Of a stretch of DNA of 24,000 nucleotides, positions 7,246-24,000 are shown one piece after another; the first letter of the stretch is position 1, and every line of letters begins with the position of its first letter. The stretch covers positions 1-24,000 of the forward strand of contig DATJPK010000026.1 in NCBI GenBank assembly GCA_035506435.1, written 5' to 3'. Source of the DNA: Methanomicrobiales archaeon (GTDB lineage: Archaea; Halobacteriota; Methanomicrobia; Methanomicrobiales; JACTUA01). The position numbers and the translations under genes are program-made. The notes below the pieces were generated by a model. That model was not told where the DNA came from. It made no database searches and saw only the letters and a list, made by a program, of their open reading frames with translations.

Positions 7246-8112
7246 CTATCTCCCTCTCATTTCGTGCAGGACGTCTCCCAGTTCGTCGAGGAGCTGCTTC
7301 CCGCTCACCCTGACGCCCTTCAGGTCCCGCAGGAGGCTCGTGTCGTCCCGCCTCTTTTCCCTCATCGCCTCTGCCCGGAGGGCCGAGAGGAGGTCGTCGG
7401 CACCCAGCCCGCCGTCGGCGAGGGTGAGGACGTTCACCGGGGGTTCCACCACCGGCTCCGGCTCCTCCCCGGGCTGGGGGAAGGCGGCCGCCTGGAGATC
7501 ACCCGGCCCGGGGGTACCGGCGACGGGGGCGAGGGCGCCCGCAGCCCCGGCTGTCTCCTCGCCGCTGACCTCTTCGAGGAGCTGGGCCGGGATGTCCACC
7601 CCGGTGAGATCGTCGAAGGGGTTATCCTGCCCCTCTCCCTGCACCGCCCCGGGCGCCGGCTTCGCCCCGGCAGGAGAGGCCTTCGCGGCCGGCTGGACCG
7701 GCGTGACGGCCTTCGGCCGGCCCTCGGCGAGGGATATGATCTTTCTTGACTGGCCGACGAGCGCCGAGTCGAGCATCAGGTCGATCTTCTCCTTCTCGGC
7801 CTCAGCGACCGCCTCAGCGGGCTCGCCGGCCGCGCCCCGGGACGGCCTGAGGCTCCTCATCCTCCCGAGTGAAGCCCGGAGCCCTCCGGGCGCTTCGGGC
7901 ACGGTGCCGGCCTGCACGACCTCTCTCGCAGAGGCTGCCGACCGGATCCGGAGGTCTTCCATCTTCAGGGAGCCCGCGGCAAAGAGCATCCCGATCCCCA
8001 CCACCGTGTCCGTGAGGACGAGGAGGACGGGGTTCATCCCGGTGTACAGCAGCGCCGTACCCGTTCCGAAGGTTCCGAGGCCAAGGATCATCTGGCGTAT
8101 TCTCTCGTTCAT
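7246..8112 (-). CDS. Hypothetical membrane protein coupled to arlJ: N-terminal TM hairpin, long Ala/Pro/Glu-rich disordered region, helical C-terminus
   Basis: 288 aa. The ATG overlaps the arlJ stop (ATGA at 8109-8112), with GGAGG (8119-8123) 6 nt upstream. TM segments are MILGLGTFGTGTALLYTGM and PVLLVLTDTVVGIGMLFAAGSL. C-terminus is DDLLSALRAEAMREKRRDDTSLLRDLKGVRVSGKQLLDELGDVLHEM. Confidence 0.8.
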   Translation of the reverse strand: MNERIRQMILGLGTFGTGTALLYTGMNPVLLVLTDTVVGIGMLFAAGSLKMEDLRIRSAASAREVVQAGTVPEAPGGLRASLGRMRSLRPSRGAAGEPAEAVAEAEKEKIDLMLDSALVGQSRKIISLAEGRPKAVTPVQPAAKASPAGAKPAPGAVQGEGQDNPFDDLTGVDIPAQLLEEVSGEETAGAAGALAPVAGTPGPGDLQAAAFPQPGEEPEPVVEPPVNVLTLADGGLGADDLLSALRAEAMREKRRDDTSLLRDLKGVRVSGKQLLDELGDVLHEMRGR

Positions 8113-9719
8113 GTGATTCCTCCCGTGGGGAAGGTTGGAATGGTGAAGAAGATGTTCACGATGATAGGCGCGAGGATGACGAGCGCCCCGCTGATGGTAA
8201 AGAGGATCGTCGAGAACAGGTAGAAGATGTACCGGTCGCCCCCGTACACGATTTTCCCCGCGATGATGTTCGAGACGGTGATGAGGAGGATGATGATCAT
8301 GACGTAGGTGGTCATCTTGTCGACGGGGAAGTGCATGAGGAAGGTGACGTCGAGGCCCGACGGCATCGACGAGGTGCTCCCCGAGATGGCCGCCTGGGAC
8401 TCCCCCAGGTTCGACATCACGTTCTCGATGGAGTTCGAGATGTTGCTCATGATGAAGAACAGGAAGAGGAGAATACCCACCATGGCGGCGTGCATGGGCA
8501 CGAGGAGGGTGACGAAGCCCATCGAGACCTGGTGGCGCTTGTCCCGGAGGAGCACCTGGTCCAGGCTCGAGGTGCCGACGATCAGGCCGACCTTGTCCGG
8601 CGAGCCGCCGAGGGTGACCGAGTCCCGGAAGATGTTCGTGTACTTGTAGATGTTATTGCTCCCCGACTCGCCGATGAACCGGCTCCAGCTCTGGGTCTCG
8701 TCGAGGCCGAGGTTCAGCTTCGAGTAGATGGAGTCCACGAGGTCACGGATCTTGGGGAGCGAGGCCCGGTCCACCTCGGTGAAACCCTGCACCATCGGGA
8801 CCCCCTTCCCCCCCATCACCGAGCCGAGGGTCCGGATGAAGGTGGGGAAGTCGTTGTCCCGGCCGACAATCTTGCTGTCGTCGATGAAGCCGAGGATCGC
8901 GAGGGGCGCGAGGAGGATCCCGATGAGGAGGTAGATGAACCCGGCGCTCTGGCCCGTGACCCAGAGGATGATGCAGCCGGCCGCCGTGACGAGGACGAGG
9001 GGCCGCTCGAGCTTCCTGATGAGGCCCTGCTCCCGGGAACACCGGTCGGCGAGACCGTGGGTCCGGCGGTCCTCGGGTACAGAGCGGTACATCGTGACGA
9101 GGCCGAAGATGGAGATCATGATGACGATGAGGTACGAGAGGTTCAGGGTCTGGTCGATTCCGCCGGCAGAGAAAATGGCGATGGAGAGCATGATGATGAG
9201 GGAAACGAGCACGCCCGAGAAGAGCATCGCGATGTACGCGTCGCCCCACTTCTTGAGCATCTCGAGGCCCTGCTCCACGGTGTTCCGGTACACGCTCCTG
9301 ATGGTGTCGAGCTCCCGGTCCAGGAAGTCCTCGTCGGGCACGCCGCTCTCCATCGCGTTTGCGTACCGGTTGAAGACCGACTGGAGCACCTCGTTTTTGA
9401 TCTTCTTTGCGACGATCTTCAGGGCCTCGGCATAGCTGTAGTTCCAGCGCTTGACAAAGTAGTCAACCTTTGCCACGTACTTGGTGGGGACGTACTCGTA
9501 CCGCCTGCCGGTGTAGGAGAAGATGTCCGGCCGGGAGACCCCCGCGGTCGTGATGGAGGCCATGTAGGTCGCCATGAAGAGGAGGTCGGCGGGGGTCCGC
9601 TTCTCCTCGTCGACGCTCTGGACGAAGCCGCTGACCCGCTTCACCTGGTCCGCGAAGGGAAGCTTCCCATCTCCCCTTGCCCGCAGGGCGTCTGCAAACC
9701 CGCCGAAGAGTCCCGCCAT
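8109..9719 (-). CDS. arlJ: Archaellum polytopic membrane platform protein ArlJ (FlaJ)
   Basis: 536 aa. Two T2SS-F-like cytoplasmic domains separated by TM bundles. Position is directly after arlI (2-nt spacer). Confidence 0.95.
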   Translation of the reverse strand: MAGLFGGFADALRARGDGKLPFADQVKRVSGFVQSVDEEKRTPADLLFMATYMASITTAGVSRPDIFSYTGRRYEYVPTKYVAKVDYFVKRWNYSYAEALKIVAKKIKNEVLQSVFNRYANAMESGVPDEDFLDRELDTIRSVYRNTVEQGLEMLKKWGDAYIAMLFSGVLVSLIIMLSIAIFSAGGIDQTLNLSYLIVIMISIFGLVTMYRSVPEDRRTHGLADRCSREQGLIRKLERPLVLVTAAGCIILWVTGQSAGFIYLLIGILLAPLAILGFIDDSKIVGRDNDFPTFIRTLGSVMGGKGVPMVQGFTEVDRASLPKIRDLVDSIYSKLNLGLDETQSWSRFIGESGSNNIYKYTNIFRDSVTLGGSPDKVGLIVGTSSLDQVLLRDKRHQVSMGFVTLLVPMHAAMVGILLFLFFIMSNISNSIENVMSNLGESQAAISGSTSSMPSGLDVTFLMHFPVDKMTTYVMIIILLITVSNIIAGKIVYGGDRYIFYLFSTILFTISGALVILAPIIVNIFFTIPTFPTGGIT

Positions 9720-9721
9720 CC

Positions 9722-11587
9722 CTAGCTCCCGATCTTGAGCAGGCCTTCCTTCTTCACCTTCGTGATCATCTGGAAGAGGTCCTTGAAGTCAACGTAGCCC
9801 GCCTTGTGCAGCCGCTCGAGGATCCGTGCCCGCTTGTCCACTTCGTCGTAGATCTCGGCCTTCTTGTGGTCGGGGAAGCCGAGGAGGGTCGCGATCTTGT
9901 TCTCGAGGATATAGCTCGCCCCTTTTCCCGAGAAGTCGAAGGTGTCGTTCACGGGGTTCCACTTGAAGATCTCGACGAAGGAGATACCGCCGGTATCGGC
10001 GTTGTACCCGACGAGCTCGTTTACCGAGAGCATGCGCCTGACGGTCTCACCGGAGGGGCGCTTGACCGCGCTCTGGATGACGACGAGGTTCAAGTTATCG
10101 AGGTAGGTCTTCGGGATGTTGATCGGGTCACCGCAGAGACGCTGGATGAGCTTCTCGACCGAGGCCGCATGGAAGGTGGAGAGCACCGGGTGACCGGTCT
10201 GCATCGCACCGAAGGCGACCGACCCCTCGACACCACGGATTTCCCCGACCACGATCATGTTCGGCCGCTGACGGAGGGCCGACTTCAGGAGGTCGAACAT
10301 GGTGACATCGGCCCCCTCGCCCTCCCCCTTGCCCTTTGCCTTCGAGACCTCCCGGGTCCAGTTCTTGTGGGGCACCTGGAGCTCGGGGGTATCCTCGATG
10401 GAGACGATCTTGTGCTCGGGCGGGATGAAGGCCGTCACGGCGTTCAGGGAGGTGGTCTTCCCCGAGGCCGTCTCCCCGCTCATGAAGAGGGACATCCCGT
10501 GCTCGATGCAGATCCAGAAGTACCCCGCCATCAGGTAGTTGCAGGTCCCGAACTCCACGAGCTTGAGGATGCTGATGACGTCGTCGGCCATGGCCTTCCG
10601 TATCGTGAAGTTGGAGCCGCGCTTCGAGATCTCGGTCCCGTACACGATGTTGATACGGGACCCGTCGGGCAGCGTCGAGTCCACGATGGGCGTGCGGTAG
10701 GTGAGGGGCTTCTTCAGCCTCTCGCCGAGCTTCACCACGAACTGGTCGAGCTCGTCGGACTTGTGGAACTCGATGATGGACTTCAGGCCCTTGAAGATCT
10801 TGTGCTCGATGAAGATCGGGCCGAGGCCGTCGCAGGTGACATCCTCGATATACCGGTCGTTGATGTACGGCTTCAGCACCCCGAGGTCGATCTTGTCCCG
10901 GATCATGAGGTACTCCACCGCCTGGTACTCCTGCGGGGTAAGCACGATCCGGCCGTCGGGGAGTTTCGGGACCTTCGCGAGCGCCGCGTCGGCCTCGTTG
11001 TCGGTCGCAGCAGTCAGGTCCTTGTTCAGGAACCCCATGATCTTTTCCTTCATGCCCTGCTTCGCCGCGATCTGGGCCATGAGCCCCTCCACCGTCTCGC
11101 CCTGCTTCGTGACGTAGACAACCCGGGAGACGAGTTCCTTTAATACCGAGGCCCGCTCGGCATCGTTGATGGGGTCCCGGTCGAGGGCGTCGAGCAGGTT
11201 CACGAGCTTGACCTCCACCGCGGGGATGAGGTCGTTCACCGAGTGGAGGAAGGAGGGCTCGATGGGGATGTAGTAGTTCCGGGCATCGACGGGGTCGGGG
11301 AAGATGTGGATGTAGGTGTTTTCGCCCGCGGGATAGATCAGGTTCGGGTCCTTCATCGACTTGAGGTCCCGCTTCAGCTCCGAGAAGAACAGGGGGACCC
11401 CGTAGGTGTTCACCGGGTAGGTATGGAGGTACTCGAGGAGGTGCGGGCTCCTCTGCGCGTACTCCTTTGCATGCGCCGGGAGCATCCGGTAGATCGAGCA
11501 GCCTTCGATGTTGTTTGCGCAGTCGTTCCCCTCGTCGGCCTTTGCCGGGTTGAAGGGGAGTGTCAGGGAGACGGTGAGGGTGCCCAT
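9722..11587 (-). CDS. arlI: Archaellum motor/assembly ATPase ArlI (FlaI), secretion-ATPase superfamily
   Basis: 621 aa. Walker A GETASGKTT, Walker B NMIVVGEIRG, SIEDTPEL and HPVLSTFHA motifs. ATG is 3 nt after the arlH stop. An internal Met at residue 35 is an alternative start. Confidence 0.97.
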   Translation of the reverse strand: MGTLTVSLTLPFNPAKADEGNDCANNIEGCSIYRMLPAHAKEYAQRSPHLLEYLHTYPVNTYGVPLFFSELKRDLKSMKDPNLIYPAGENTYIHIFPDPVDARNYYIPIEPSFLHSVNDLIPAVEVKLVNLLDALDRDPINDAERASVLKELVSRVVYVTKQGETVEGLMAQIAAKQGMKEKIMGFLNKDLTAATDNEADAALAKVPKLPDGRIVLTPQEYQAVEYLMIRDKIDLGVLKPYINDRYIEDVTCDGLGPIFIEHKIFKGLKSIIEFHKSDELDQFVVKLGERLKKPLTYRTPIVDSTLPDGSRINIVYGTEISKRGSNFTIRKAMADDVISILKLVEFGTCNYLMAGYFWICIEHGMSLFMSGETASGKTTSLNAVTAFIPPEHKIVSIEDTPELQVPHKNWTREVSKAKGKGEGEGADVTMFDLLKSALRQRPNMIVVGEIRGVEGSVAFGAMQTGHPVLSTFHAASVEKLIQRLCGDPINIPKTYLDNLNLVVIQSAVKRPSGETVRRMLSVNELVGYNADTGGISFVEIFKWNPVNDTFDFSGKGASYILENKIATLLGFPDHKKAEIYDEVDKRARILERLHKAGYVDFKDLFQMITKVKKEGLLKIGS

Positions 11588-11590
11588 GGA

Positions 11591-12337
11591 TCAGACCTTC
11601 GCAACCGATATCGGGATGATCTTGATGCCGTACCCGGGGACGACCTCGAAGGAGACCAGGTTCTCCCGGGTCTTGTGGGCGCCCCGGATCTTCACGACCT
11701 CGAGGACCATCAGGTACTTGTCGCCCATGAGGGCCCGCTTCAGGGTGAGGAGGGCGTCGCAGACCTGCCGGAGCCGGACGAGCGTGTCCTCCTCGAAGGC
11801 ATAGGAGTGCAGGGTGACGAAGATGGTCTTTCCCTTGTCGCAGAGGTTCTTGCAGCCCGTGAAGAAGTCGATGATGACCTCGCTCGAGGTGTTCTCGGTG
11901 AAGAGGGTGATGGAGTCGATGATGACGATCTCCGCCTGGCTCTCCCTGATGTGGGCGAGGAGGCGCTGGAGGATCTCCTCCATGTTCTCCTTCTCGGGGT
12001 CAAAGCCGGGCACGAGGACAGGGAAGAGCCTGAGGTAGCCCCAGGCATAGTAGTCAGAGATGTCGAGGCTCATCGTCTCCATCTGTGAGAGGAAGTCCTG
12101 GGGGTTCGTCTCGCTCGAGTAAATGTCGATGCACAGGCCCTGCTTCATCCCGCCCCATATGATCTGCTGGGTGAAGACCGACTTCCCGCTGTCATGTTCC
12201 CCCTCGATGAGGGTGAGGGACTTCAGGGGCACCCCGTCGTCGAATTTCTTGTCGATCTCGGACTTCCCCGTCACGAGGACGGCCTTCTTCTTTTCGGCCG
12301 CCTGGTCCAGGGATCCTGGCTTGTCTTCCAATGGCAT
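11591..12337 (-). CDS. arlH: ArlH (FlaH), KaiC/RecA-like ATP-binding archaellum protein
   Basis: 248 aa. Walker A-like GEHDSGKS, IVIIDSIT Walker B-like strand. GGAGTG SD overlaps the arlG stop. Confidence 0.95.
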   Translation of the reverse strand: MPLEDKPGSLDQAAEKKKAVLVTGKSEIDKKFDDGVPLKSLTLIEGEHDSGKSVFTQQIIWGGMKQGLCIDIYSSETNPQDFLSQMETMSLDISDYYAWGYLRLFPVLVPGFDPEKENMEEILQRLLAHIRESQAEIVIIDSITLFTENTSSEVIIDFFTGCKNLCDKGKTIFVTLHSYAFEEDTLVRLRQVCDALLTLKRALMGDKYLMVLEVVKIRGAHKTRENLVSFEVVPGYGIKIIPISVAKV

Positions 12338-12346
12338 AGAGCACTC

Positions 12347-12847
12347 CTACACGATGTACGCGGAGTCGTAGACCCCGTTCGCAGTCGACACCTTCACCCA
12401 CACCGGGTCGCCCTTCAGGGGGTCCGGGTCGTAGGCCACCGAGATGTTCACAACCTCGTCGGGATCGAGGAGCCCCGGGTGGACGATCTCGCCGTGGACG
12501 AGATCGGGGCTCATGATCCGGTAGACCCAGTCGTACGGGGCCGAGAGGTTGGTGTACGTGTACGGGACCCCGCCCTGCATCAGGTACACCTCGGTGTGGT
12601 TGAAGTCCCCGAGGATCTCGCTCCCCGTGTTCTTCACCTCGAGGTACGTCAGCCGGGCCCCGAGGTCGTTCGATACGTTCATGATCTCGACGTTCGTATG
12701 GATCCGCTCGTTTTCCTTCTCCGAGATGGCACGCTGGGCAAGGACGGCGGTCTTTGCCGTGGCAAGGGTCCCCCCGATCAGGACGTAGGCCGTTATGATG
12801 AGGAGGATGATCGCGACCGCGGACGCGATGATGGTGCCGGCACCCAT
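12347..12847 (-). CDS. arlG: ArlG (FlaG)
   Basis: 166 aa. Single N-terminal hydrophobic helix (IIASAVAIILLIITAYVLIGG) followed by a beta-rich domain. F versus G is assigned by the canonical order arlF-arlG-arlH. Confidence 0.8.
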   Translation of the reverse strand: MGAGTIIASAVAIILLIITAYVLIGGTLATAKTAVLAQRAISEKENERIHTNVEIMNVSNDLGARLTYLEVKNTGSEILGDFNHTEVYLMQGGVPYTYTNLSAPYDWVYRIMSPDLVHGEIVHPGLLDPDEVVNISVAYDPDPLKGDPVWVKVSTANGVYDSAYIV

Positions 12848-12850
12848 ATC

Positions 12851-13354
12851 CTAGCTCACCGTAAACTGCTCCGAGCGCTTCGTCCCGTCGAAGAGGACCA
12901 TCTGGAAGTACACGACGTCCCCCCTCGAAGTCGGGAGATGGTCGCTCTTCATCATGAGATGGAGGGTCTCGCCCTCGTCCCAGTAGGCGTTCGAGTTATC
13001 CAGGATATCGTAGCTCCACTTGCCGGCGGCCGGCGGGGCGCCCACGAGATCATCCTGGGAGAGGGCCTCGAAGTCGCCCGGGGCACCGATAAAGAGGGTG
13101 GACATGTTCAGGTCCTTCAGGTAGATCCGACTCGTACCCGTGTCCTTCAGCCAGACCTGGGCGTTCCCTGCCGAATCCGCGAAGCTGTTCACGATGACCA
13201 TGTCGGTCCGCATCTGCTGGTCTGCCTTCGAAGAGGAGGAGGAGAAGGTGGAGGACATGGTATAGATGGCCGGGAAAATCTGGGAGGTGAGGATGCCTGC
13301 CGCTACGATGGCGGTGATGAGGAAGATGGCCGTAACGATTGTCTCACTCGACAT
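12851..13354 (-). CDS. arlF: ArlF (FlaF)
   Basis: 167 aa. N-terminal helix TIVTAIFLITAIVAAGILTSQIF plus a beta-rich domain. 3-nt spacers on both sides. Confidence 0.8.
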   Translation of the reverse strand: MSSETIVTAIFLITAIVAAGILTSQIFPAIYTMSSTFSSSSSKADQQMRTDMVIVNSFADSAGNAQVWLKDTGTSRIYLKDLNMSTLFIGAPGDFEALSQDDLVGAPPAAGKWSYDILDNSNAYWDEGETLHLMMKSDHLPTSRGDVVYFQMVLFDGTKRSEQFTVS

Positions 13355-13357
13355 CCA

Positions 13358-14161
13358 TCAGGTCCTGTCCATGCTGTCGATCCACTCGAAGACCTGATCG
13401 CTCTCGGGTTTCCCGGCCTTTCTCGGGACCGCGGCCACCGGGCCCGGGATCCGGTGGGTCATGAGGACCTCGATCATGTCCTCGTCCAGGGTGTTGTCCT
13501 TGGGGTCGAGGATCCGGTTGAGGATATAGAGCTCGGAGACGAACTCGTCGGGTCCGATGACATGGAGTTCCCCGAGCGAGGCGGGGAGGAGCCGGCCGAT
13601 CTCCCGGATCTGGCCTTCCATCTCCTCGGTAAGGTATCCCATGCTCGTATAGGCCTGGAGGAGGATCTCGAGCCGGTCATGGCCGTACCGGTTGATGATC
13701 TTCGACGTCCATCCAAAGAGCCGGTGTACCTTCCGGAGCCGGAGCTTCTCCCCGAGCTTCCCGGATCCGAAGGGCATGGCCGGCGGCATCTTTCCCTTTC
13801 CCCGCAGCATGTTTGCAAGCTCCTCCTGGACGCTCTTCTCGGCGCCCGGGAAGGACTCCTCCTGCTCCTCCGCCTTCTCTTCACCGGCGGGGACCTCCTC
13901 CTCTTCCTTCTCCTCCTCGGCCGGGGCCTCTTCAGCCTCGGGGAGCTTTCCCGGGAGCGGCCCATGGGTGAGGAAGGGGTTATCCTTCTCGTTCAGCCGG
14001 TCCCGGATATCGATCAGGAGCTTCTTGATGGAGGTCTTCATGAGGTCCATCTCGTCCTGCAGCTTGAGGAGCTTCACGTCCGCGTCCCCGGCAGGTGAGG
14101 CGGCAGCGGCGGGTGCCTCATCCTGCGGTGACGGCGGCATATTCAGATTGAGCCTGGCCAT
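13358..14161 (-). CDS. arlCDE: Fused ArlC/ArlD-E type archaellum protein (FlaC coiled coil + acidic linker + FlaD/E domain)
   Basis: 267 aa. N-terminal coiled coil VKLLKLQDEMDLMKTSIKKLLIDIRDRLNE, poly-acidic linker EEAPAEEEKEEEEVPAGEEKAEEQEE, C-terminal FlaD/E-like RLFGWTSKIINRYGHDRLEILLQAYTSMGYLTEEMEGQIREIGRLL. An alternative start is Met8 (14140). Confidence 0.85.
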   Translation of the reverse strand: MARLNLNMPPSPQDEAPAAAASPAGDADVKLLKLQDEMDLMKTSIKKLLIDIRDRLNEKDNPFLTHGPLPGKLPEAEEAPAEEEKEEEEVPAGEEKAEEQEESFPGAEKSVQEELANMLRGKGKMPPAMPFGSGKLGEKLRLRKVHRLFGWTSKIINRYGHDRLEILLQAYTSMGYLTEEMEGQIREIGRLLPASLGELHVIGPDEFVSELYILNRILDPKDNTLDEDMIEVLMTHRIPGPVAAVPRKAGKPESDQVFEWIDSMDRT

Positions 14162-14169
14162 AGCACACT

Positions 14170-14215
14170 CACGTAAAAAAAATTAATCACTCATACTAAA
14201 TATACCTTGTGTTTT
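14170..14215 (-). promoter_or_regulatory. Candidate promoter of the arlCDE-J (and downstream) operon
   Basis: Minus-strand AGGTATATTTAG (14196-14207, ~41 nt upstream of ATG 14161) and GATTAATTTTTTTT (14174-14188), inside a ~140-bp very AT-rich island. Confidence 0.35.
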
Positions 14216-14302
14216 GCTATTTTTCATAAAAGACATAGTGTTTACAAAATAACCTGAAAATCTTCATTAAAACGGGAAATAAATCGGGTTTGCGCCTCGT
14301 TC

Positions 14303-14380
14303 ATCCGGGGGTGGTCCCCCCGGATACATCACCTGCTATCCCCGGCATGCACCGGGCGCGGCGCATGCACTGTAAAAAAA
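14303..14380 (-). terminator. Archaellin transcript terminator: T7 run followed by GC-rich hairpins
   Basis: On the minus strand a TTTTTTT run (14374-14380) starts 10 nt after the arlB stop. Next comes GCATGC...GCATGC (14345-14350 / 14363-14368). Then a 9-bp perfect stem ATCCGGGGG / CCCCCGGAT (14303-14311 / 14317-14325) with a 5-nt loop. Confidence 0.55.
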
Positions 14381-14389
14381 GGTGAGGGA

Positions 14390-14998
14390 TCAGGTCAGGA
14401 TGTTCATGACGGTGATCCCGCCAGGCGCCGTTTTCACGAGCGGGAGGGCCGCGCCCACGTCCGGCTTGATGGTGAGGGTGAATTCCTCGCCCGCCGGGAG
14501 GCTCGACGATCCCATGCTCAGGTTCGCCTGGATGGTGAACTTCTCGTTCCGCTCGAGGGCGGTGTCCCCGTCGTCGTTCTGGGTCGAGACGATGCACCAC
14601 TGGTAATTGGACGGCTGGACCCCGGGCTTGTAGATGTTGCTCGCGAAGTCCAGGTTCTGGAGAACGCTCCGGTTCTGGTAGGTGAGCACCGTCCGGTTGA
14701 GGTCGACCGGGGTTCCGCCAGCAGCGAGCTGGATGCTGAACAGGATCGTGTGGATCCCGTGCGGGCCCGAGTTCACGTCAGCGGTTCCCTCGGCGTCCCC
14801 GTACACCTCGCCGTTGATCACGATGTTCGAGGTGGCCTGCTGGACGCCCTTGTAGACGACCTCCTGGGATTTCTGGGTCGTGAAGAACCCGGCCCCGAGG
14901 ACCACATACGAGAAGACCGCGGCAACCACCACGAAGGCGATGAGGACGATGGCCGCCTCAAGGCCCGTGAAGGCTTCGGATTTCTGGAATTTCTTCAT
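14390..14998 (-). CDS. arlB: Archaellin ArlB (FlaB), promoter-distal copy
   Basis: 202 aa. Class III signal peptide and hydrophobic N-terminus MKKFQKSEA/FTGLEAAIVLIAFVVVAAVFSYVVLGAGFFTTQKSQ. N-x-S/T sequons NRT, NRS, NLS. GGTGAGGTGA SD in the 11-nt spacer after the first archaellin. Confidence 0.95.
   Translation of the reverse strand: MKKFQKSEAFTGLEAAIVLIAFVVVAAVFSYVVLGAGFFTTQKSQEVVYKGVQQATSNIVINGEVYGDAEGTADVNSGPHGIHTILFSIQLAAGGTPVDLNRTVLTYQNRSVLQNLDFASNIYKPGVQPSNYQWCIVSTQNDDGDTALERNEKFTIQANLSMGSSSLPAGEEFTLTIKPDVGAALPLVKTAPGGITVMNILT
14831..14978 (-). repeat. Conserved 5' segment shared by the two archaellin genes (copy 2)
   Basis: Manual alignment with 15442-15589 (offset 611 nt): about 24 mismatches in ~147 nt, roughly 84 percent identity. 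The remaining 3' two-thirds diverge. Confidence 0.8.
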
Positions 14999-15009
14999 CT
15001 CTTCTCACC

Positions 15010-15612
15010 TCACCGCAGGGCGTTCACCGGGTCGATGCCACCGGGGCCTTCCCTCTTGATGGAGAGGGCCGGGCCGACGACGGGCTTGACCTCGAGGGTG
15101 AACGTGTCCCGGGAGACGATGGCGCTCGTTGACGAGGTAAGGTGAACGGAGATGTCCATCTGCTCGCCGGTCTCCAGGTAATAGTTCGTGTTCCCGTTCG
15201 TGATCCTGATGATGGACCACTGGCCTGCAGCCGGGCCGCTGTTGAAGAGCGGGCTCGCCTGGGAGAGCTCTACCCGGGTACTCTGGTTCGAATACACCAT
15301 CGCGATCTTCGTCATGTCAATGGGTTCGCCGCCAGGGGCGAGGCCCATCGTGAAGTTCACGAAGTTGATCTCCGGACACGGGCATGCACCCGCCGTGACC
15401 CGGCCGAGGCCGATGACGTCCCCCAGTACCTCGAAACTCGAGGAGGCCTGCTGGACGCCCGTGATCACGGTCTGCTGGCTCTTCTGGGTGGTGAAGAACC
15501 CTGCCCCGAGGACCACGTAGGAGAAGACAGCGGCCACGACCACGAAGGCGATGAGAACAATCGCCGCCTCGAGGCCCGTGAACGCATCTTCACGACTCAG
15601 TAGACGTTTCAT
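15010..15612 (-). CDS. arlB: Archaellin ArlB (FlaB), promoter-proximal copy
   Basis: 200 aa. MKRLLSREDA/FTGLEAAIVLIAFVVVAAVFSYVVLGAGFFTTQKSQ. Sequons NFT, NQS. AGGTG SD (15619-15623) 6 nt upstream of the ATG. Confidence 0.95.
   Translation of the reverse strand: MKRLLSREDAFTGLEAAIVLIAFVVVAAVFSYVVLGAGFFTTQKSQQTVITGVQQASSSFEVLGDVIGLGRVTAGACPCPEINFVNFTMGLAPGGEPIDMTKIAMVYSNQSTRVELSQASPLFNSGPAAGQWSIIRITNGNTNYYLETGEQMDISVHLTSSTSAIVSRDTFTLEVKPVVGPALSIKREGPGGIDPVNALR
15442..15589 (-). repeat. Conserved 5' segment shared by the two archaellin genes (copy 1)
   Basis: See 14831-14978. Confidence 0.8.
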
Positions 15613-19772: not shown

Positions 19773-20489
19773 ATGGACATGGCCGAAATGAAGCTCCAGA
19801 TCCCGTACGCCGCGATATCCGAGAGCCTGAAGAAGACCCTCGCCCTCACGGGATCGCCCGTTGCCGTGAAGCTCGCGAAAGCGAAGGAGGACATCCCTGC
19901 CGGTATCCCGGAGGGAAAGGAGGTGCTCAGGCATTGCCAGATGGTGAACCTTGCGCGAAAGGAGGGGCAGGTGTTTTTCGCGCCTTCGGACAAGCACCAG
20001 TGCAACGGCGGGGCATGGGCCCTCGGGCTCCGGGAGATCACCCCGACCCTCCGGAGCGGCGAGTTCTACTTCAGGCTCGGGAAGTTCGAAAGCATGGCTG
20101 CCTGCCGGCGGACGATGGACAGGATTCCGCACCTCCGGACGGGCGAGACCTATGCCACCATCTATGCCCCGCTCGAGAAGACCCCCGTCGACCCCGACGT
20201 GGTGCTCATCATCACCACCCCGAGGAACATGCTGAAGCTCGCGCAGGCGAGCCTTTTCCGGCTCGGGGGGAGGATCACCGCGGCGATGGCCGGCATCCAG
20301 TCGGTCTGCTCCGACGCGACGGCCCAGACGTACCTCACCGGGGTTGCGAACTTCTCCCTCGGTTGTGACGGCTCGCGCCGGTTCTCTGGCATCGGGGACG
20401 ACGAGATGGTCATGGGGTTCCCTGCCGAGATCCTTCCCGAGATCAGCGAGGCGATCAGGGTCGTTACCGCGGCGCCGGGCTCGAAGTAA
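19773..20489 (+). CDS. DUF169-family protein
   Basis: 238 aa. ALTGSPVAVKL, HCQMV and QCNGGAWALGL are typical of DUF169 (COG2043) as I recall it. ATG 19779 has better SD spacing (GGAGAGG at 19766-19772), so the true start may be 6 nt downstream. Confidence 0.8.
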   Translation: MDMAEMKLQIPYAAISESLKKTLALTGSPVAVKLAKAKEDIPAGIPEGKEVLRHCQMVNLARKEGQVFFAPSDKHQCNGGAWALGLREITPTLRSGEFYFRLGKFESMAACRRTMDRIPHLRTGETYATIYAPLEKTPVDPDVVLIITTPRNMLKLAQASLFRLGGRITAAMAGIQSVCSDATAQTYLTGVANFSLGCDGSRRFSGIGDDEMVMGFPAEILPEISEAIRVVTAAPGSK

Positions 20490-20940
20490 CCCGGCGTTCC
20501 CTATCCTTTTTTACCTCTATTACCACGAGCCGGGCCGCCACAGGGAGAGCCGCCCTGACCGCCGGGTCCATCTCGCCGGAAAATCCCTGCATCTGTCCGC
20601 CCTCGATCCCGACGATCACCACCTCGGGGGCGACCCCGAGGGTGCGGGCGAGGGCGAGGGCCTCGGCAATGCCGAGCTCGTGGAGCGAGAGGCTCGGGAT
20701 CCCCCCAGGCGGCACCCCGCGGAACACCCTGACCTCGCCGGGCTCACCCATTCCTGACGTTGCATCGACGATCACAACCCGGTCGTACCCCTCCATGAGG
20801 GGGATGAGCCCGAGGCCCCCGTTTCCCCCGTCGACGGCGTCAATCTCCGGGTGTGTCTCCCTGACGAGGGCCATCACCGCGAGACCAGCCGCATCGTTCC
20901 CCATGAGCGGGTTCCCGCACGCGATGACCCGGACCTTCAT
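20464..20940 (-). CDS. Hydrogenase maturation endopeptidase (HycI/FrhD-like)
   Basis: Track ORF (20464-21324) has an implausible D/E/G/R/P-rich N-terminal extension. ATG 20940 gives 158 aa, MKVRVIACGNPLMGNDAAGLAV...VVIVDA...SLHELG, matching the GN.L..DD.G / D / H nickel-endopeptidase motifs. Confidence 0.85.
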   Translation of the reverse strand: MKVRVIACGNPLMGNDAAGLAVMALVRETHPEIDAVDGGNGGLGLIPLMEGYDRVVIVDATSGMGEPGEVRVFRGVPPGGIPSLSLHELGIAEALALARTLGVAPEVVIVGIEGGQMQGFSGEMDPAVRAALPVAARLVVIEVKKDRERRVTSSPAPR

Positions 20941-21051
20941 AGTGCCCTCGCCCCCTCTCCATCCCCGTGTATGAACCCGGCCGGTTCTTATACTCTTATC
21001 AGGGAGGGAGTTCAAATAACGATCACCAGGTGGTCGACCGTGCAGGTATCC
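20941..21051. promoter_or_regulatory. Divergent promoter spacer (protease leftward, ACT-hom operon rightward)
   Basis: A single AT-rich patch, TTCTTATACTCTTATC (20985-21000), could serve both directions. Confidence 0.3.
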
Positions 21052-21543
21052 ATGAAGCTCGAGATGAAGGACACCCCGGGGCAGCTCGTCCGGGTCCTCG
21101 AACCCATATCCGCGTGCGGCGGGAACATCATCGCCGTAATCCACCAGCGGGACCCCGAGTCTGAGTCGGACACCCTCGACGTCCAGATCGTGCTTGACCT
21201 CCCCGCGGGCAGGCTCCCCTCGCTCGTCGACCAGATCAAGAGCCTCGGGGTGGACATCCTCCGCATCGGCGAAGAAAGGCTCATCCACAGGCGGTCCCTC
21301 ATCATGATCGGCCACATCATGCACACCGACATCAGCGACACCGTCGACCAGATCGACCGCACGGGGTTTGCCGAGGTCGCGGAGCTCTCGCTCATGATGC
21401 CTGCCATCAGCGAGCGTTCCTCGGCGCGGATCACCATCAAGACCGCGAACCGGGCCGACATGGAGACCGCGGTCGGCATCCTGCGGGAGGTCGCCGCGAA
21501 GAAGGACATCCTCGTCGTCGAACCACTGGAGGACGGGGCATGA
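21052..21543 (+). CDS. ACT-domain protein (amino-acid-binding regulatory domain), coupled to homoserine dehydrogenase
   Basis: MKLEMKDTPGQLVRVLEPISACGGNIIAVIH... has ACT-like beta-alpha-beta-beta-alpha-beta periodicity, apparently two modules. GTG 21040 is an alternative start. The stop overlaps the hom ATG (ATGA 21540-21543). Confidence 0.82.
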   Translation: MKLEMKDTPGQLVRVLEPISACGGNIIAVIHQRDPESESDTLDVQIVLDLPAGRLPSLVDQIKSLGVDILRIGEERLIHRRSLIMIGHIMHTDISDTVDQIDRTGFAEVAELSLMMPAISERSSARITIKTANRADMETAVGILREVAAKKDILVVEPLEDGA

Positions 21544-22514
21544 GGGTCGCCATCCTCGGGTTCGGTTCCGTCGGGCAGGGGGTGGCGAGGATGATCGGGG
21601 AAAAGGACCTCGGCCTCACCGTCACGGCCCTCGCCGATTCAAGAGGGGGGATCATCGACCCCGATGGCATCGACATCCCGGGGACCTTCGCGAGGAAGTC
21701 GAAGAGCGGATCCTGCGGGAAACCCCGGGTATCGGCGATGGACGTCGTCGCGTCGGGCGCCTACGACGCCCTCGTCGAGGTCACCCCGACGAACATCAGG
21801 ACCGGCGAGCCGGCCATCACCCACATCAGGAAGGCCCTCTCGCTCGGGAAGCATGTCGTCACCTCGAACAAGGGCCCCATCGCCCTCGCCCGCCGGGACC
21901 TGCTGGCCCTCGCGGCGAAGAAGGGCGTCGCCCTCCGGTACGAGGCAACGGTCTGCGGGGCGATCCCCATCATCCACACCCTGGAGCACGGCCTGCTCGG
22001 AAACGAGGTGAAGGGCCTCTTCGGCGTGATGAACGGGACCTGCAACTACATCCTCACCCGGATGGAGGACGAGGGGCTCACCTACGACCAGGCGCTCGGC
22101 GAGGCGCAGGAGATGGGGTACGCCGAGAAGGACCCCACGTACGACGTGAAGGGCCTCGACACGGCGCTCAAGCTCGTCATCCTCGCGAACACCGTCTGGG
22201 GGACGGACAGGACCCTCGCCGACGTGCAGGTGACGGGAATCGACCTGATCACCCCGCAGGCCATCCAGCTCGCCATGGACCGGGAGACGGCCATCCGGCT
22301 CATCGGGGAGGCCGTGCCGTCGCGGAACCTCCTCCGGGTCTCCCCCCGGATCATACCGAGGAACCACCCGCTCCTCGTCGCCGGGACCCTGAACGCGGTG
22401 ACGGTCGTCACCGACATGGCCGGGGAGCTCACCTTCATCGGGAAGGGGGCGGGCTCGGTCGAGACGGCGAGCGCGGTGATCGGGGACCTCCTCTACATCG
22501 CCGGGAGCACCTGA
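21540..22514 (+). CDS. hom: Homoserine dehydrogenase
   Basis: 324 aa. MRVAILGFGSVGQGV Rossmann motif, NGTCNYILTRM, GYAEKDPTYDVKGLDTALKLVILAN. GGAGG 7 nt upstream. Confidence 0.95.
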   Translation: MRVAILGFGSVGQGVARMIGEKDLGLTVTALADSRGGIIDPDGIDIPGTFARKSKSGSCGKPRVSAMDVVASGAYDALVEVTPTNIRTGEPAITHIRKALSLGKHVVTSNKGPIALARRDLLALAAKKGVALRYEATVCGAIPIIHTLEHGLLGNEVKGLFGVMNGTCNYILTRMEDEGLTYDQALGEAQEMGYAEKDPTYDVKGLDTALKLVILANTVWGTDRTLADVQVTGIDLITPQAIQLAMDRETAIRLIGEAVPSRNLLRVSPRIIPRNHPLLVAGTLNAVTVVTDMAGELTFIGKGAGSVETASAVIGDLLYIAGST

Positions 22515-22524
22515 AGGGGCGGCG

Positions 22525-23646
22525 ATGCCGGGAGTCCTCGAGAGGCGGCGCGGGATCCTGAAACTGATGCGGTCCTACACGCTGGACCGCGGGTTTTTCA
22601 CGGTGTCCGACATCGCCGCGAGCACCGGCCTCCCCCGGTCGACGGCGCAGGACTGGATCAACCGGCTCCTCGACGAGGGGTGCCTGGTCGTCCGGGAAGG
22701 CCGGCGGGGGAGGGCCCCGGCCCGGTACCTCTCGAAGAGCGCGATGCCCTCCTCGGCCTGCCGCCGGATCTTCACCACCATCGACGGCGACGAGGTGGAG
22801 ATCTACCACGAGTGCCTCTCGGCGGGGAGCGCCGCCTACTGCGAGTTCCACCACCGGCGGGCAGGGGGGGTCCTCTCCCGGGTGTCCCGGGACGGGACCC
22901 TCCTTCGGGAACGTGCCTTCCTCGGGGAGCGGGGCACCCACATCGGGTTTTTCCCCGATCCGGCCGTCGGGGTCACCCGCCTCCGGCAGGAAGGGGAGGA
23001 TCTCGTCCAGGCCATCCGGTGTGTCGGGGGTCCCGCGTATTCCCTCACCGATATGATGGCCCAGGCCGAAGGGGTCCTCGACGTCAGGGTGGAACGGTCG
23101 GGGCCCTTTGTCGAGGGGGAGGTCACCACCCGGGCAATGCGCTACCTGGCGATCGGGATAGACGACACCGACACGCCCGAGGGCGGGGCCACCTTCGCCC
23201 TCGCCCTCGCCCTGCACCAGCACCTCTCCACCCTCGGGGGGGTCATGCCCATCGGCCACCACGTGGTAATGCTCAACCCGGAGAACCCGGACCGGACGGG
23301 AGGGAACTCGGCGAGCTTCATCGAGCTTGCCGCCGAGCCGGCCCTGTGCCCGCAGATCCGGGAGCACAGCCTCAGGTTCGTCTCCGACGAGGCCCTCTCC
23401 CCCGAGTGGGGGATCGCCATCAAGGGGGGCTTCACCGTTCCACGGGACCTCCGCGAGTTCGGGAACCGGGCCCGGACCGGGAGGGTCACGAGGGAGGAGG
23501 CCGGGGAGATGGCCCGGAGGCACGGGATTTTCATGAGCGGGGGGCGGGGGACCATCGGGGCCCTCGCCGCGGTCTCCTGTATCGGCCTCGACAACTCCAT
23601 CCTTCTCGATCCCAAGCGAGCGATCCTCCCGGAAGGGGGAGCCTGA
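22525..23646 (+). CDS. Uncharacterised protein: N-terminal winged-HTH, Cys/His-rich middle region, C-terminal domain resembling the N-terminal kinase (TCKD) domain of tRNA(Ile2) agmatidine synthetase TiaS
   Basis: 373 aa. HTH-like FTVSDIAASTGLPRSTAQDWINRLLDEGCLVV. AIGIDDTDTPEGGATF and VVMLNPENPDRTGGNSASF parallel the TiaS motifs GIDDTDS..GMCTTY and RLNP.IP.KTRGNGA (from memory). No OB-fold or Zn-ribbon tail. Starts 10 nt after the hom stop with GAAGGGG upstream. Confidence 0.7.
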   Translation: MPGVLERRRGILKLMRSYTLDRGFFTVSDIAASTGLPRSTAQDWINRLLDEGCLVVREGRRGRAPARYLSKSAMPSSACRRIFTTIDGDEVEIYHECLSAGSAAYCEFHHRRAGGVLSRVSRDGTLLRERAFLGERGTHIGFFPDPAVGVTRLRQEGEDLVQAIRCVGGPAYSLTDMMAQAEGVLDVRVERSGPFVEGEVTTRAMRYLAIGIDDTDTPEGGATFALALALHQHLSTLGGVMPIGHHVVMLNPENPDRTGGNSASFIELAAEPALCPQIREHSLRFVSDEALSPEWGIAIKGGFTVPRDLREFGNRARTGRVTREEAGEMARRHGIFMSGGRGTIGALAAVSCIGLDNSILLDPKRAILPEGGA

Positions 23647-23692
23647 ACCCTCCCGTGCAGGGATCCCGTTATCACCCGATGGATTACCCATA

Positions 23693-23736
23693 GGGAAAGA
23701 TAGGTATAAATAGACCATTCCCTGAAATAATGAAGG
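23693..23736 (+). promoter_or_regulatory. grpE promoter: TATA box bracketed by an inverted repeat
   Basis: GTATAAATA (23704-23712) is ~29 nt upstream of ATG 23737. GGGAA (23693-23697) and TTCCC (23718-23722) flank it. Confidence 0.4.
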
Positions 23737-24000
23737 ATGACTGGTGAGGAGGGCGGACAGGAGGGTGAACCCGCCGGTGGAATCGCAGAGCTCAGGAAGG
23801 AGCTCGACGATGCACGGCGGCTCGCCGACGAACGGCTCACCCGGCTCCGGTATCTCCAGGCAGACTTCGACAACTACCGGAAGAGCCAGGACCGGGAGCG
23901 GGAGCAGATCGTCCAGCTCGCGGCCGAGTCCCTGGTCCGGGACCTCCTCCCGGTCCTCGACGACCTCGAGCGGGCGATACCGGCGCTCTCCCAGGAGAAA
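23737..24000 (+). CDS. grpE: GrpE nucleotide exchange factor, N-terminal 88 codons; continues beyond the right window edge
   Basis: Absent from ORF track (no stop). Manual translation: MTGEEGGQEGEPAGGIAELRKELDDARRLADERLTRLRYLQADFDNYRKSQDREREQIVQLAAESLVRDLLPVLDDLERAIP. This is the GrpE signature (R..ADF.N.RKR...E........L..LLPV.D.LERA). Confidence 0.9.
   Translation, partial: MTGEEGGQEGEPAGGIAELRKELDDARRLADERLTRLRYLQADFDNYRKSQDREREQIVQLAAESLVRDLLPVLDDLERAIPALSQEK

Follow-up and report, generated by a model that had tools for sequence, protein, structure and literature searches.

What does a protein do that joins a winged helix to the unusual kinase domain (TCKD) of a tRNA-modifying enzyme? 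The question is raised by a 24,000-nucleotide stretch of a Methanomicrobiales genome (GenBank assembly GCA_035506435.1, contig DATJPK010000026.1, positions 1 to 24,000 of the forward strand; hereafter the window), in which an earlier reading of the letters alone (the original prediction) had placed an open reading frame at 22525–23646 with two motifs like those of TiaS, the tRNA(Ile2) 2-agmatinylcytidine synthetase. The frame and both motifs are present; AIGIDDTDTPEGGATFALALAL forms residues 209–230 of the 373-aa product and VVMLNPENPDRTGGNSASF residues 247–265. Sequence comparisons place the product within the Mmp11/TCKD superfamily, in a clade that is old and separate and in which a winged helix-turn-helix (wHTH) precedes a module shared with methanogenesis marker protein 11 (Mmp11). 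We refer to proteins of this architecture as the fused clade and to their gene as the fused gene. We lean toward a role in transcription regulation, to which we give somewhat less than an even chance, and weigh it below together with enzymatic alternatives. The gene and its parts are as follows.

22525..23646, plus strand: gene of the wHTH/Mmp11-type N-domain/TCKD protein (fused clade), open reading frame, 373 aa
22525..22746, plus strand: winged helix-turn-helix domain, residues 1–74 (Pfam on the isolated segment, model, Foldseek)
22747..23139, plus strand: Mmp11-type N-domain, residues 75–205, two tandem β-β-α-β-β units (TIGR03280 alignment, matches to unfused Mmp11-type proteins)
22759..22842, plus strand: Cys79, His95, Cys97, and Cys106 (C-x15-H-x-C-x8-C), putative metal or redox site (conservation)
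23140..23589, plus strand: TiaS-type TCKD, residues ~206–355 (Pfam, NCBIfam, phmmer, Foldseek)

Domain architecture of the fused protein

An AlphaFold model of the whole protein (predicted local distance difference test, pLDDT, 92.2; predicted template modeling score, pTM, 0.78) comprises an N-terminal winged helix (~1–74), an Mmp11-type N-domain (75–205), and a C-terminal TCKD (~206–355). A search with the protein returned 749 relatives, and N-termini align from residue 1. Conservation was assessed in 43 non-redundant Methanomicrobiales sequences and 17 distant fused-clade sequences.

The winged helix proposed originally is supported both by the model, which has helices at residues 4–22, 27–34, and 38–50 plus a wing, and by Pfam. 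Scanned alone, residues 1–74 exceed the gathering thresholds of TrmB (26.3 vs. 25.6 bits) and HTH_IclR (22.8 vs. 22); on the full protein the TrmB HTH scores 22.3 bits (threshold 25.6), and several other wHTH families score almost equally. Foldseek matches the segment to the winged helices of ROK and MarR regulators. It is basic (14 Lys and Arg vs. 7 Asp and Glu), with P37-R-S-T-x-Q-D-W-x-x-R47 as its recognition helix and G62-R-x-P-A-x-Y as its wing. In 60/60 fused-clade sequences, whether from Methanomicrobiales or from lineages as distant as Asgard archaea, the recognition helix has the same residues at six positions (P37, R38, T40, D43, W44, and R47).

At the other end of the protein, the resemblance to TiaS extends beyond the two motifs to the whole TCKD. 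With 30.2 bits, the domain exceeds the gathering threshold of Pfam PF22641 (TiaS_TCKD; 27 bits), the NCBIfam TiaS profile (NF040849) matches residues 208–351 (E=1.7e-13), and phmmer against the PDB finds P. furiosus TiaS (3u02; E=2.4e-11) and A. fulgidus TiaS (3amt/3au7/4rvz; ~3e-4) over residues 208–352. The structural likeness anticipated by the original prediction was recovered as well, with Foldseek placing the model on six TiaS entries over 145–164 columns at 2.5–3.0 Å (probability 1.00, E=5e-10 to 2e-8). The key features of the domain are G-I-D213-D214-T-D216, G221-A-T223, L250-N-P252, R257-T-G-G260-N261, and G342-x-x-G345-A-L-A-A. The fused clade shares D213, D214, T215, D216, G221, A222, T223, T258, G342, G345, and A346, as well as L250, with both groups of unfused relatives described below. 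The K/R-T-x-G-N motif divides them: G260-N261 is kept in 60/60 fused-clade sequences, as in TiaS (KTRGN), whereas in the unfused groups (K-T-x-N-C) position 260 is Asn in 15/16 and position 261 is Cys in 16/16. In the phmmer alignment, D213, D214, and D216 fall on Asp8, Asp9, and Asp11 of TiaS, and T223 falls on Thr18. Thr18 is reportedly the residue that TiaS autophosphorylates, and D8, D9, and D11 make up its motif (Terasaka et al.; Osawa et al.; NSMB 2011). The OB fold and zinc ribbon of TiaS are absent, as had been noted, and so is the FLD, since the protein ends at residue 373, ~20 residues past the TCKD; a Pfam scan of the 373 residues found no TiaS_FLD and no tRNA_anti-codon match.

We identify the region between as an Mmp11 N-domain because unfused proteins of 300–335 aa align over it together with the TCKD. 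Modeled alone, it reaches a pLDDT of 92.2 and a pTM of 0.85. No Pfam family matched it, and Foldseek against the PDB returned nothing at E≤0.001 (best E 0.04), with weak ACT-like half-domain matches only. The Cys/His-rich middle region described earlier is part of this N-domain, and its spacing is C79-x15-H95-E-C97-x8-C106-x2-H109-H110 rather than C-x17-HEC-x8-C-x-HH. C79, H95, C97, and C106 occur without exception (43/43 Methanomicrobiales and 17/17 distant sequences); H109 and H110 (to 22854) are conserved within Methanomicrobiales only. Among the unfused sequences, C79 (6/11) and C97 (9/11) recur in the A-type only, H95 and C106 are replaced in every one, and the full Cys3His set is found in none.

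Place in the Mmp11/TCKD superfamily

The TCKD had been described as isolated. We found instead that residues 81–353 match TIGR03280 (Mmp11) as a single unit, over profile positions 4–283 of 292 (E=1.4e-29), with a score of 103.1 bits that lies below the curated cut-off of 255.8. A phmmer search with residues 75–373 against 1.84 billion representatives returned 206 proteins in three tiers: fused proteins (372–391 aa, 34%–57% identity); unfused proteins (300–335 aa, 22%–33% identity) aligned over the middle domain and TCKD; and, over the TCKD only, true TiaS (405–460 aa) and short TiaS-like proteins, of which the long ones were confirmed as TiaS. The TiaS representatives sampled came from orders other than Methanomicrobiales. 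A neighbor-joining tree of 165 TCKD columns split off TiaS at 100% and grouped the fused clade at 72% and the two unfused types together at 74%. The fused clade sits between TiaS and the two unfused groups; it thus branched off early and did not arise from Mmp11 by a recent fusion. The picture of a TCKD detached from TiaS and newly joined to an HTH thus gives way to one of a protein from the Mmp11 branch of the superfamily, whose fusion is ancient and widespread. All 60 sequences and the window protein carry a common signature (P-R-S/T-T-x-x-D-W-x-x-R, C-x15-17-H-x-C-x8-C, T-x-G-N, and a length of ~370–390 aa).

We also considered whether the window protein might be the Methanomicrobiales orthologue of Mmp11, and rejected this. 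A profile search found unfused ~318-aa forms in Methanoculleus, Methanoregula, Methanoplanus, Methanolacinia, Methanomicrobium, and Methanogenium, and Methanoculleus chikugoensis carries a fused form (P0118) and an unfused form (P0423). As unfused paralogues occur in the same genera and the same species, the window protein is a paralogue of Mmp11. Methanomicrobiales have at least three Mmp11-type paralogues, of which it is one, and presumably a TiaS besides.

Mmp11 (TIGR03280; "methanogenesis imperfect marker protein 11"; a COG1571-type paralogue such as MMP1593 of M. maripaludis) shares with the fused protein a tandem ββαββ N-domain and TCKD, alignable over residues 81–353, with GxDDTD, G-A-T, and a C-terminal GxxGxxGAxAA. 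Unlike Mmp11, the fused protein has a 74-residue wHTH, the Cys3His set, and K/R-T-x-G-N, falls in a separate clade, scores below the Mmp11 cut-off, and has a gene linked to hom or other partners, where Mmp11 is found with an AksA/D/E/F-type cluster. Mmp11 is methanogen-restricted by marker definition, whereas the fused clade also has members in lineages that are not methanogens, Promethearchaeota and Freyarchaeota among them. A COG1571-type protein has been listed among methanogen-specific proteins (Gao & Gupta 2007). TiaS (PDB 3AMT, 3AMU, 3AU7, 4RVZ, 5XOB, 3U02) has in common with the fused protein the TCKD fold, DDxD, the Thr18 equivalent, and K-T-x-G-N; its TCKD is N-terminal, whereas that of the fused protein is C-terminal, preceded by the wHTH and Mmp11-type domain, and matches only profile positions 3–151 of 422.

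At NCBI the fused clade is labeled "sugar-specific transcriptional regulator TrmB" and the unfused 318-aa proteins mostly "tRNA(Ile2) 2-agmatinylcytidine synthetase"; the JGI label of the latter is "methanogenesis imperfect marker protein 11." Both NCBI labels fail the family features, there being no TrmB effector domain in the one case and no FLD, OB, or zinc ribbon in the other. Could the window protein nevertheless be what such labels say, a TrmB-family sugar regulator or a TiaS? Close relatives bear the TrmB name, TrmB is the best Pfam match of the N-terminus, and the TCKD is homologous to that of TiaS. But the TrmB match is limited to the ~50-residue HTH and the sugar-binding effector domain is absent (the Pfam scan found no TrmB_EBD; residues 75–373 are Mmp11-type domain and TCKD), while the TiaS equivalog scores 49.9 bits against a cut-off of 600, and true TiaS proteins match residues ~208–352 only. 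We rejected both identities, which the domain content refutes, and hold it very improbable that either label is true.

The ACT–hom–X unit in Methanomicrobiales

In the window, the fused gene follows two co-directional genes and a conserved promoter.

20983..21003, plus strand: conserved promoter box of the ACT–hom–X unit, reading TTCTTATACTCTTATCAGG in the window
21040..21543, plus strand: ACT-domain protein (Pfam ACT), first cistron, probable start GTG at 21040 with an ATG at 21052
21540..22514, plus strand: hom (homoserine dehydrogenase), upstream partner (Pfam Homoserine_dh, E=8e-58; NF004912, 425 bits, cut-off 373)

A scan of species-representative genomes gave 309 loci with a relative, of which the best 80 are all from Methanomicrobiales (Methanoregulaceae, Methanolinea, Methanoculleus, Methanofollis, Methanospirillaceae, and Methanomicrobiaceae). 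The operon with ACT and hom that had been proposed is borne out: in 71/71 loci whose upstream sequence reaches at least 1.5 kb, the gene directly before the fused gene, on the same strand, is hom (modal alignment gap 11 nt), and ACT precedes hom in 66/68. This synteny is kept within the order and was not seen at the loci outside it. The triad, with the fused gene as X, is also found in Methanoculleus and in Methanocorpusculum (48% identity). Downstream genes vary (DUF2284 in 5/66 loci), and this, together with the fixed ACT–hom upstream, makes the fused gene the last cistron of the unit. The ACT and hom reading frames overlap by ATGA. Between the hom stop (22514) and the ATG of the fused gene stands a 10-nt spacer, AGGGGCGGCG, which is purine- and G-rich and where the original prediction had put a Shine–Dalgarno (SD) sequence. 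The ACT match in the window is below the Pfam gathering threshold (22.7 bits vs. 27; E=8e-5), and orthologues match PF26798 (ACT_10). The start region of the ACT gene, GTG-CAG-GT(A/T)-TCC-ATG, is conserved behind an SD-like CAGGTGGT.

The promoter contains a 16-nt block, ~52–55 nt before the ATG, that is strongly conserved in 61 distinct sequences. It reads TTCTTATACTCTTATC in the window (at 20987) and gTAAAAGgCTTATCTT in most genera, and its pattern occurs about once per locus, at the ACT–hom–X promoter (50 matches in 843 kb). A weaker conserved stretch, gGc.GttCaA.tatt, follows on its 3' side, between the TATA-like box and the expected start, and is itself followed by CAGGTGGT. The block is absent from the promoters of the unfused-Mmp11 cluster described below. 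It is compatible with autoregulation, though no demonstration of it.

A second element in the same region, at 21019–21035 of the window, is a near-perfect inverted repeat, CGATCACC-A-GGTGGTCG (7/8 positions), over the SD-like CAGGTGG of the ACT gene. We rejected it as a general operator, as it is not conserved in other genera; it could be an SD-sequestering hairpin or a lineage-specific operator.

Fused genes in other archaeal lineages

The fused architecture is also found in Methanomethylicia and Nezhaarchaeales and in bins of Promethearchaeota, Helarchaeota, Freyarchaeota, Jordarchaeia, and Thermoprotei. Where the original prediction had looked to phyletic distribution, the architecture proved ancient, reaching Asgard and TACK archaea, and the hom partner proved particular to Methanomicrobiales. 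The fused clade is missing among the named matches from Methanosarcinales, Methanococcales, and Methanobacteriales. Its neighbors outside the order are the following.

Methanomethylicia/Verstraetearchaeota: fused gene solitary, divergent THUMP-SPOUT gene adjacent
Nezhaarchaeales: mtrH, Mmp14, fused gene, aminotransferase, beside mtrEDCBAFG
Helarchaeota and Promethearchaeota: fused gene after NIF3/DUF34, at 10 and 77 nt
Freyarchaeota: fused gene solitary
Asgard-like contig of the P0133 cluster (including "Lokiarchaeota CR_4" protein P0291): no hom, Arf/Ras/Roc GTPase gene nearby

In the Nezhaarchaeales run (L090:4563-9459), which is co-directional, mtrH (443 bits) comes first and methanogenesis marker 14 (600 bits) second; the fused gene is third, ahead of a gene of the acetylornithine aminotransferase family. 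The run adjoins the divergent mtrEDCBAFG operon and joins two uncharacterized "methanogenesis marker" families. An MtrH-like gene also lies ~4.7 kb from the fused gene in Methanomethylicia (L008:13411-14235). Three Asgard loci of otherwise different gene order have a Pterin_bind/DUF4346 gene, methanopterin-type dihydropteroate-synthase-like, ~5.5 kb from the fused gene (L093:12878-13128, L094:12710-13122, L095:12658-13131), and one of them has a GCHY-1 gene. The proximity of pterin genes and MtrH to the fused gene may be chance and is too weak to build on.

Some of these neighbors bear on the possibility that the fused protein modifies nucleic acids. Such an enzyme would carry out TiaS-like ATP activation of a carbonyl oxygen with amine addition, or a phosphorylation, on RNA or DNA, its wHTH and N-domain replacing the FLD, OB, and zinc ribbon in holding the substrate. 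Besides the THUMP-SPOUT gene divergently adjacent in Methanomethylicia, RsmB-type and TrmY-type methyltransferases lie within 3 kb in Helarchaeota and Promethearchaeota; none of these is a conserved partner, however, and their presence could be chance. The fused clade also branches closest to TiaS, keeps K-T-x-G-N where the unfused groups have K-T-x-N-C, and has every catalytic-motif residue invariant. A recognition helix that is invariant across phyla would be expected for a universal target such as tRNA or rRNA, and some winged helices bind RNA, such as that of Rio2, to which the Foldseek matches are weak. Yet an enzyme for a universal RNA would not be expected to be so patchily distributed, it is hard to see why an RNA modification should go with hom in 71/71 loci, and the closest paralogues lie in a small-molecule biosynthetic cluster. 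We consider a nucleic-acid-modifying enzyme unlikely.

Unfused paralogues in a coenzyme-B-type cluster

That cluster was located in Methanolacinia petrolearia and Methanoculleus, and an Mmp11 of the other unfused group has a related setting in a different lineage.

L004:10001-18634, Methanolacinia petrolearia CP002117 (2474813-2495811): unfused-Mmp11 cluster
L006:8001-16608, Methanoculleus: unfused-Mmp11 cluster
L092:1030-4205, different lineage: other-group Mmp11 between an AksA-like gene and a radical S-adenosylmethionine (SAM) gene

In M. petrolearia and Methanoculleus, two tandem unfused Mmp11-type genes head a conserved co-directional cluster. With TIGR03280, Mmp11 proper of M. petrolearia scores 319 bits, above the cut-off, and its A-type neighbor 203 bits. 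The pair is followed by a lipoyl-synthase-like radical SAM enzyme, an IOR-alpha-like thiamine pyrophosphate protein, and an AksA-like homocitrate/isopropylmalate synthase; the cluster also encodes both aconitase subunits, large and small, a DUF7714 protein of the XcbA family, and an isopropylmalate-dehydrogenase-like protein. Its Aks-like genes are of the AksA, AksD, AksE, and AksF kinds. Coenzyme B is 7-mercaptoheptanoyl-threonine phosphate, and Aks enzymes make 2-oxosuberate, its precursor. In the literature on the late steps of coenzyme B synthesis, we found no genes assigned to threonine ligation and phosphorylation, and a 2025 paper treats the pathway as still incompletely assigned. The unfused pair are candidates for these two ATP-dependent steps, and the cluster perhaps covers the decarboxylation and sulfur-insertion steps as well.

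Might the fused protein, too, be a metabolic enzyme? It could act in the homoserine/threonine branch or in the supply of coenzyme B or cobamide precursors, as a kinase on a homoserine or threonine hydroxyl or as an ATP-dependent amide ligase, with a wHTH that is vestigial or serves protein contacts. The chemistry would fit, as the TCKD of TiaS reportedly phosphorylates both a Thr hydroxyl and a carbonyl oxygen, and the catalytic motifs are intact. Throughout the order its gene is strictly coupled to hom, with translational linkage and the last place in the unit, as would suit such an enzyme, and the unfused paralogues sit in a coenzyme-B-type cluster whose late threonine steps lack assigned genes in the literature searched. 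The coupling is, however, confined to Methanomicrobiales, the neighbors in Nezhaarchaeales, Methanomethylicia, and Asgard archaea being unrelated. Moreover, the wHTH is the most constrained part of the protein (60/60 at its invariant positions) and therefore not vestigial. A metabolic role of this kind has, in our judgment, a low probability.

A possible enzyme-derived regulator

The reading to which we incline, while holding it tentatively, is that the fused protein is an enzyme-derived, ATP-using one-component transcription regulator of BirA/ROK-like design. A small metabolite would bind to the Mmp11/TCKD module along with Mg-ATP; in Methanomicrobiales it probably belongs to the homoserine/threonine branch or is a threonine-containing product. 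Phosphoryl transfer by the module, onto the ligand or its own Thr223, would switch the winged helix between DNA-bound and free states and so tune transcription of its own operon, with its homoserine dehydrogenase, and possibly of other targets. The Cys3His site would provide a structural zinc or a second, redox or metal, input.

Several observations argue for a regulator. The recognition helix and wing are invariant in 60/60 sequences, and the wHTH is basic and exceeds Pfam thresholds alone. The architecture is kept while operon partners change between phyla, as with local regulators, and its distribution is patchy (206 representatives in the whole superfamily search). The ACT–hom–X promoter carries a conserved block specific to this operon. 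The use of ATP is suggested by DDxD, G-A-T, and T-x-G-N, which are invariant across the fused clade, and the link to threonine by the unfused paralogues, which sit with AksA/D/E/F-like genes in two lineages, coenzyme B containing threonine.

The design has precedents in the ROK repressors (Mlc/NagC, with a wHTH and a sugar-kinase fold with a Zn site) and in BirA (wHTH and biotin-protein ligase), in which an N-terminal winged helix is likewise set on an enzyme-homologous domain. As in those systems, a free-standing ATP-using homologous enzyme coexists in the same genome, and Foldseek matched the ROK wHTH. ROK proteins carry a Cys-rich zinc site. The effector domains of ROK proteins and BirA are not homologous to that of the fused protein, so the likeness is one of mechanism by analogy and not of family membership.

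A number of points weigh against a regulator. When catalytic motifs are fully retained over so long a divergence, an active enzyme is the more usual case, not a sensor. That the recognition helix stays invariant across phyla despite different neighbors could reflect a universal nucleic-acid or protein partner, and the tight coupling of a last cistron (10-nt spacer or overlap) would suit a pathway enzyme or subunit too. DNA binding, operator, and regulon are all predictions. The promoter block, which is non-palindromic and resembles a transcription factor B recognition element (BRE) and TATA box, could simply be BRE/TATA, and it is absent upstream of the fused gene in Methanomethylicia, Nezhaarchaeales, and an Asgard-like contig. 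Coenzyme B synthesis is not known from the Asgard carriers, so a ligand related to it cannot be ancestral. Both options of the original prediction, a transcription factor that senses a ligand or nucleotide and an enzyme with a different substrate, are still in play.

Regulation by the fused protein could be carried one speculative step further. The TCKD may have become a signaling module, so that the protein is a transcription factor that phosphorylates itself on Thr223, or its ligand, and represents an undescribed class of archaeal one-component kinase-regulators in Methanomicrobiales, TACK methanogens, and Asgard archaea. In Methanomicrobiales it would couple ACT–hom expression to the need for threonine-containing cofactors that the unfused paralogues make, with the corollary that the unfused pair are the missing ATP-dependent ligase and kinase of coenzyme B biosynthesis. 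We think this full scheme improbable.

Other features of the window and related loci

Between DUF169 and the ACT gene, the window holds a HycI-type hydrogenase maturation protease (20464-20931, minus strand; Pfam E=6e-18), divergent from the ACT–hom–X promoter; it is absent there in Methanoculleus (L001), where DUF169 directly precedes ACT. Downstream of the fused gene (23647-24000, plus strand), an 84-nt spacer with a TATA-like AAAGATAGGTATAAATA is followed by an open reading frame that runs from ~23731 past the window end and looks GrpE-like from its translation, judged by eye. An archaellum operon occupies 8109-15612 (minus strand), with two flagellins, two FlaF/G-like flagellin-domain genes, KaiC-like FlaH, FlaI (T2SSE), and FlaJ (T2SSF); ABCE1/RLI (2935-4707) and an NFACT protein (559-2448) are encoded near it. 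The order of flagellins, inositol monophosphatase, NAD kinase, and DUF169 is the same in Methanoculleus (L001). In two bins, two copies of the fused gene were found on different contigs (L035 and L053 in JAKPPB01; L015 and L016 in DATKMC01), reflecting either strain mixtures or genuine duplication.

Implications

A search of the literature on Mmp11, TIGR03280, TCKD, TiaS-like proteins, and DUF1743 yielded no functional statement and no account of the fused architecture, in agreement with the earlier remark that no function had been described for it. The fused architecture is thus undescribed in the literature that we found, while the family is already in databases and its domains are known. 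The annotations of all three groups, as "TrmB sugar regulator" or "TiaS," are misleading and should not be propagated.

The TCKD has been reported as a fold of one tRNA enzyme only, TiaS. It now appears in at least three further protein types, one of which carries a DNA-binding domain and has been kept in methanogens and Asgard archaea alike, and this gives the fold a reach beyond tRNA modification. By way of its two unfused paralogues, the fused gene has also led to a testable lead on the late steps of coenzyme B biosynthesis. The fused protein itself is an unusual and deeply conserved architecture without an assigned function in the literature found. If it is a regulator, it would represent a new type of enzyme-derived transcription factor and would offer a first handle on how the homoserine/threonine branch is controlled in Methanomicrobiales.

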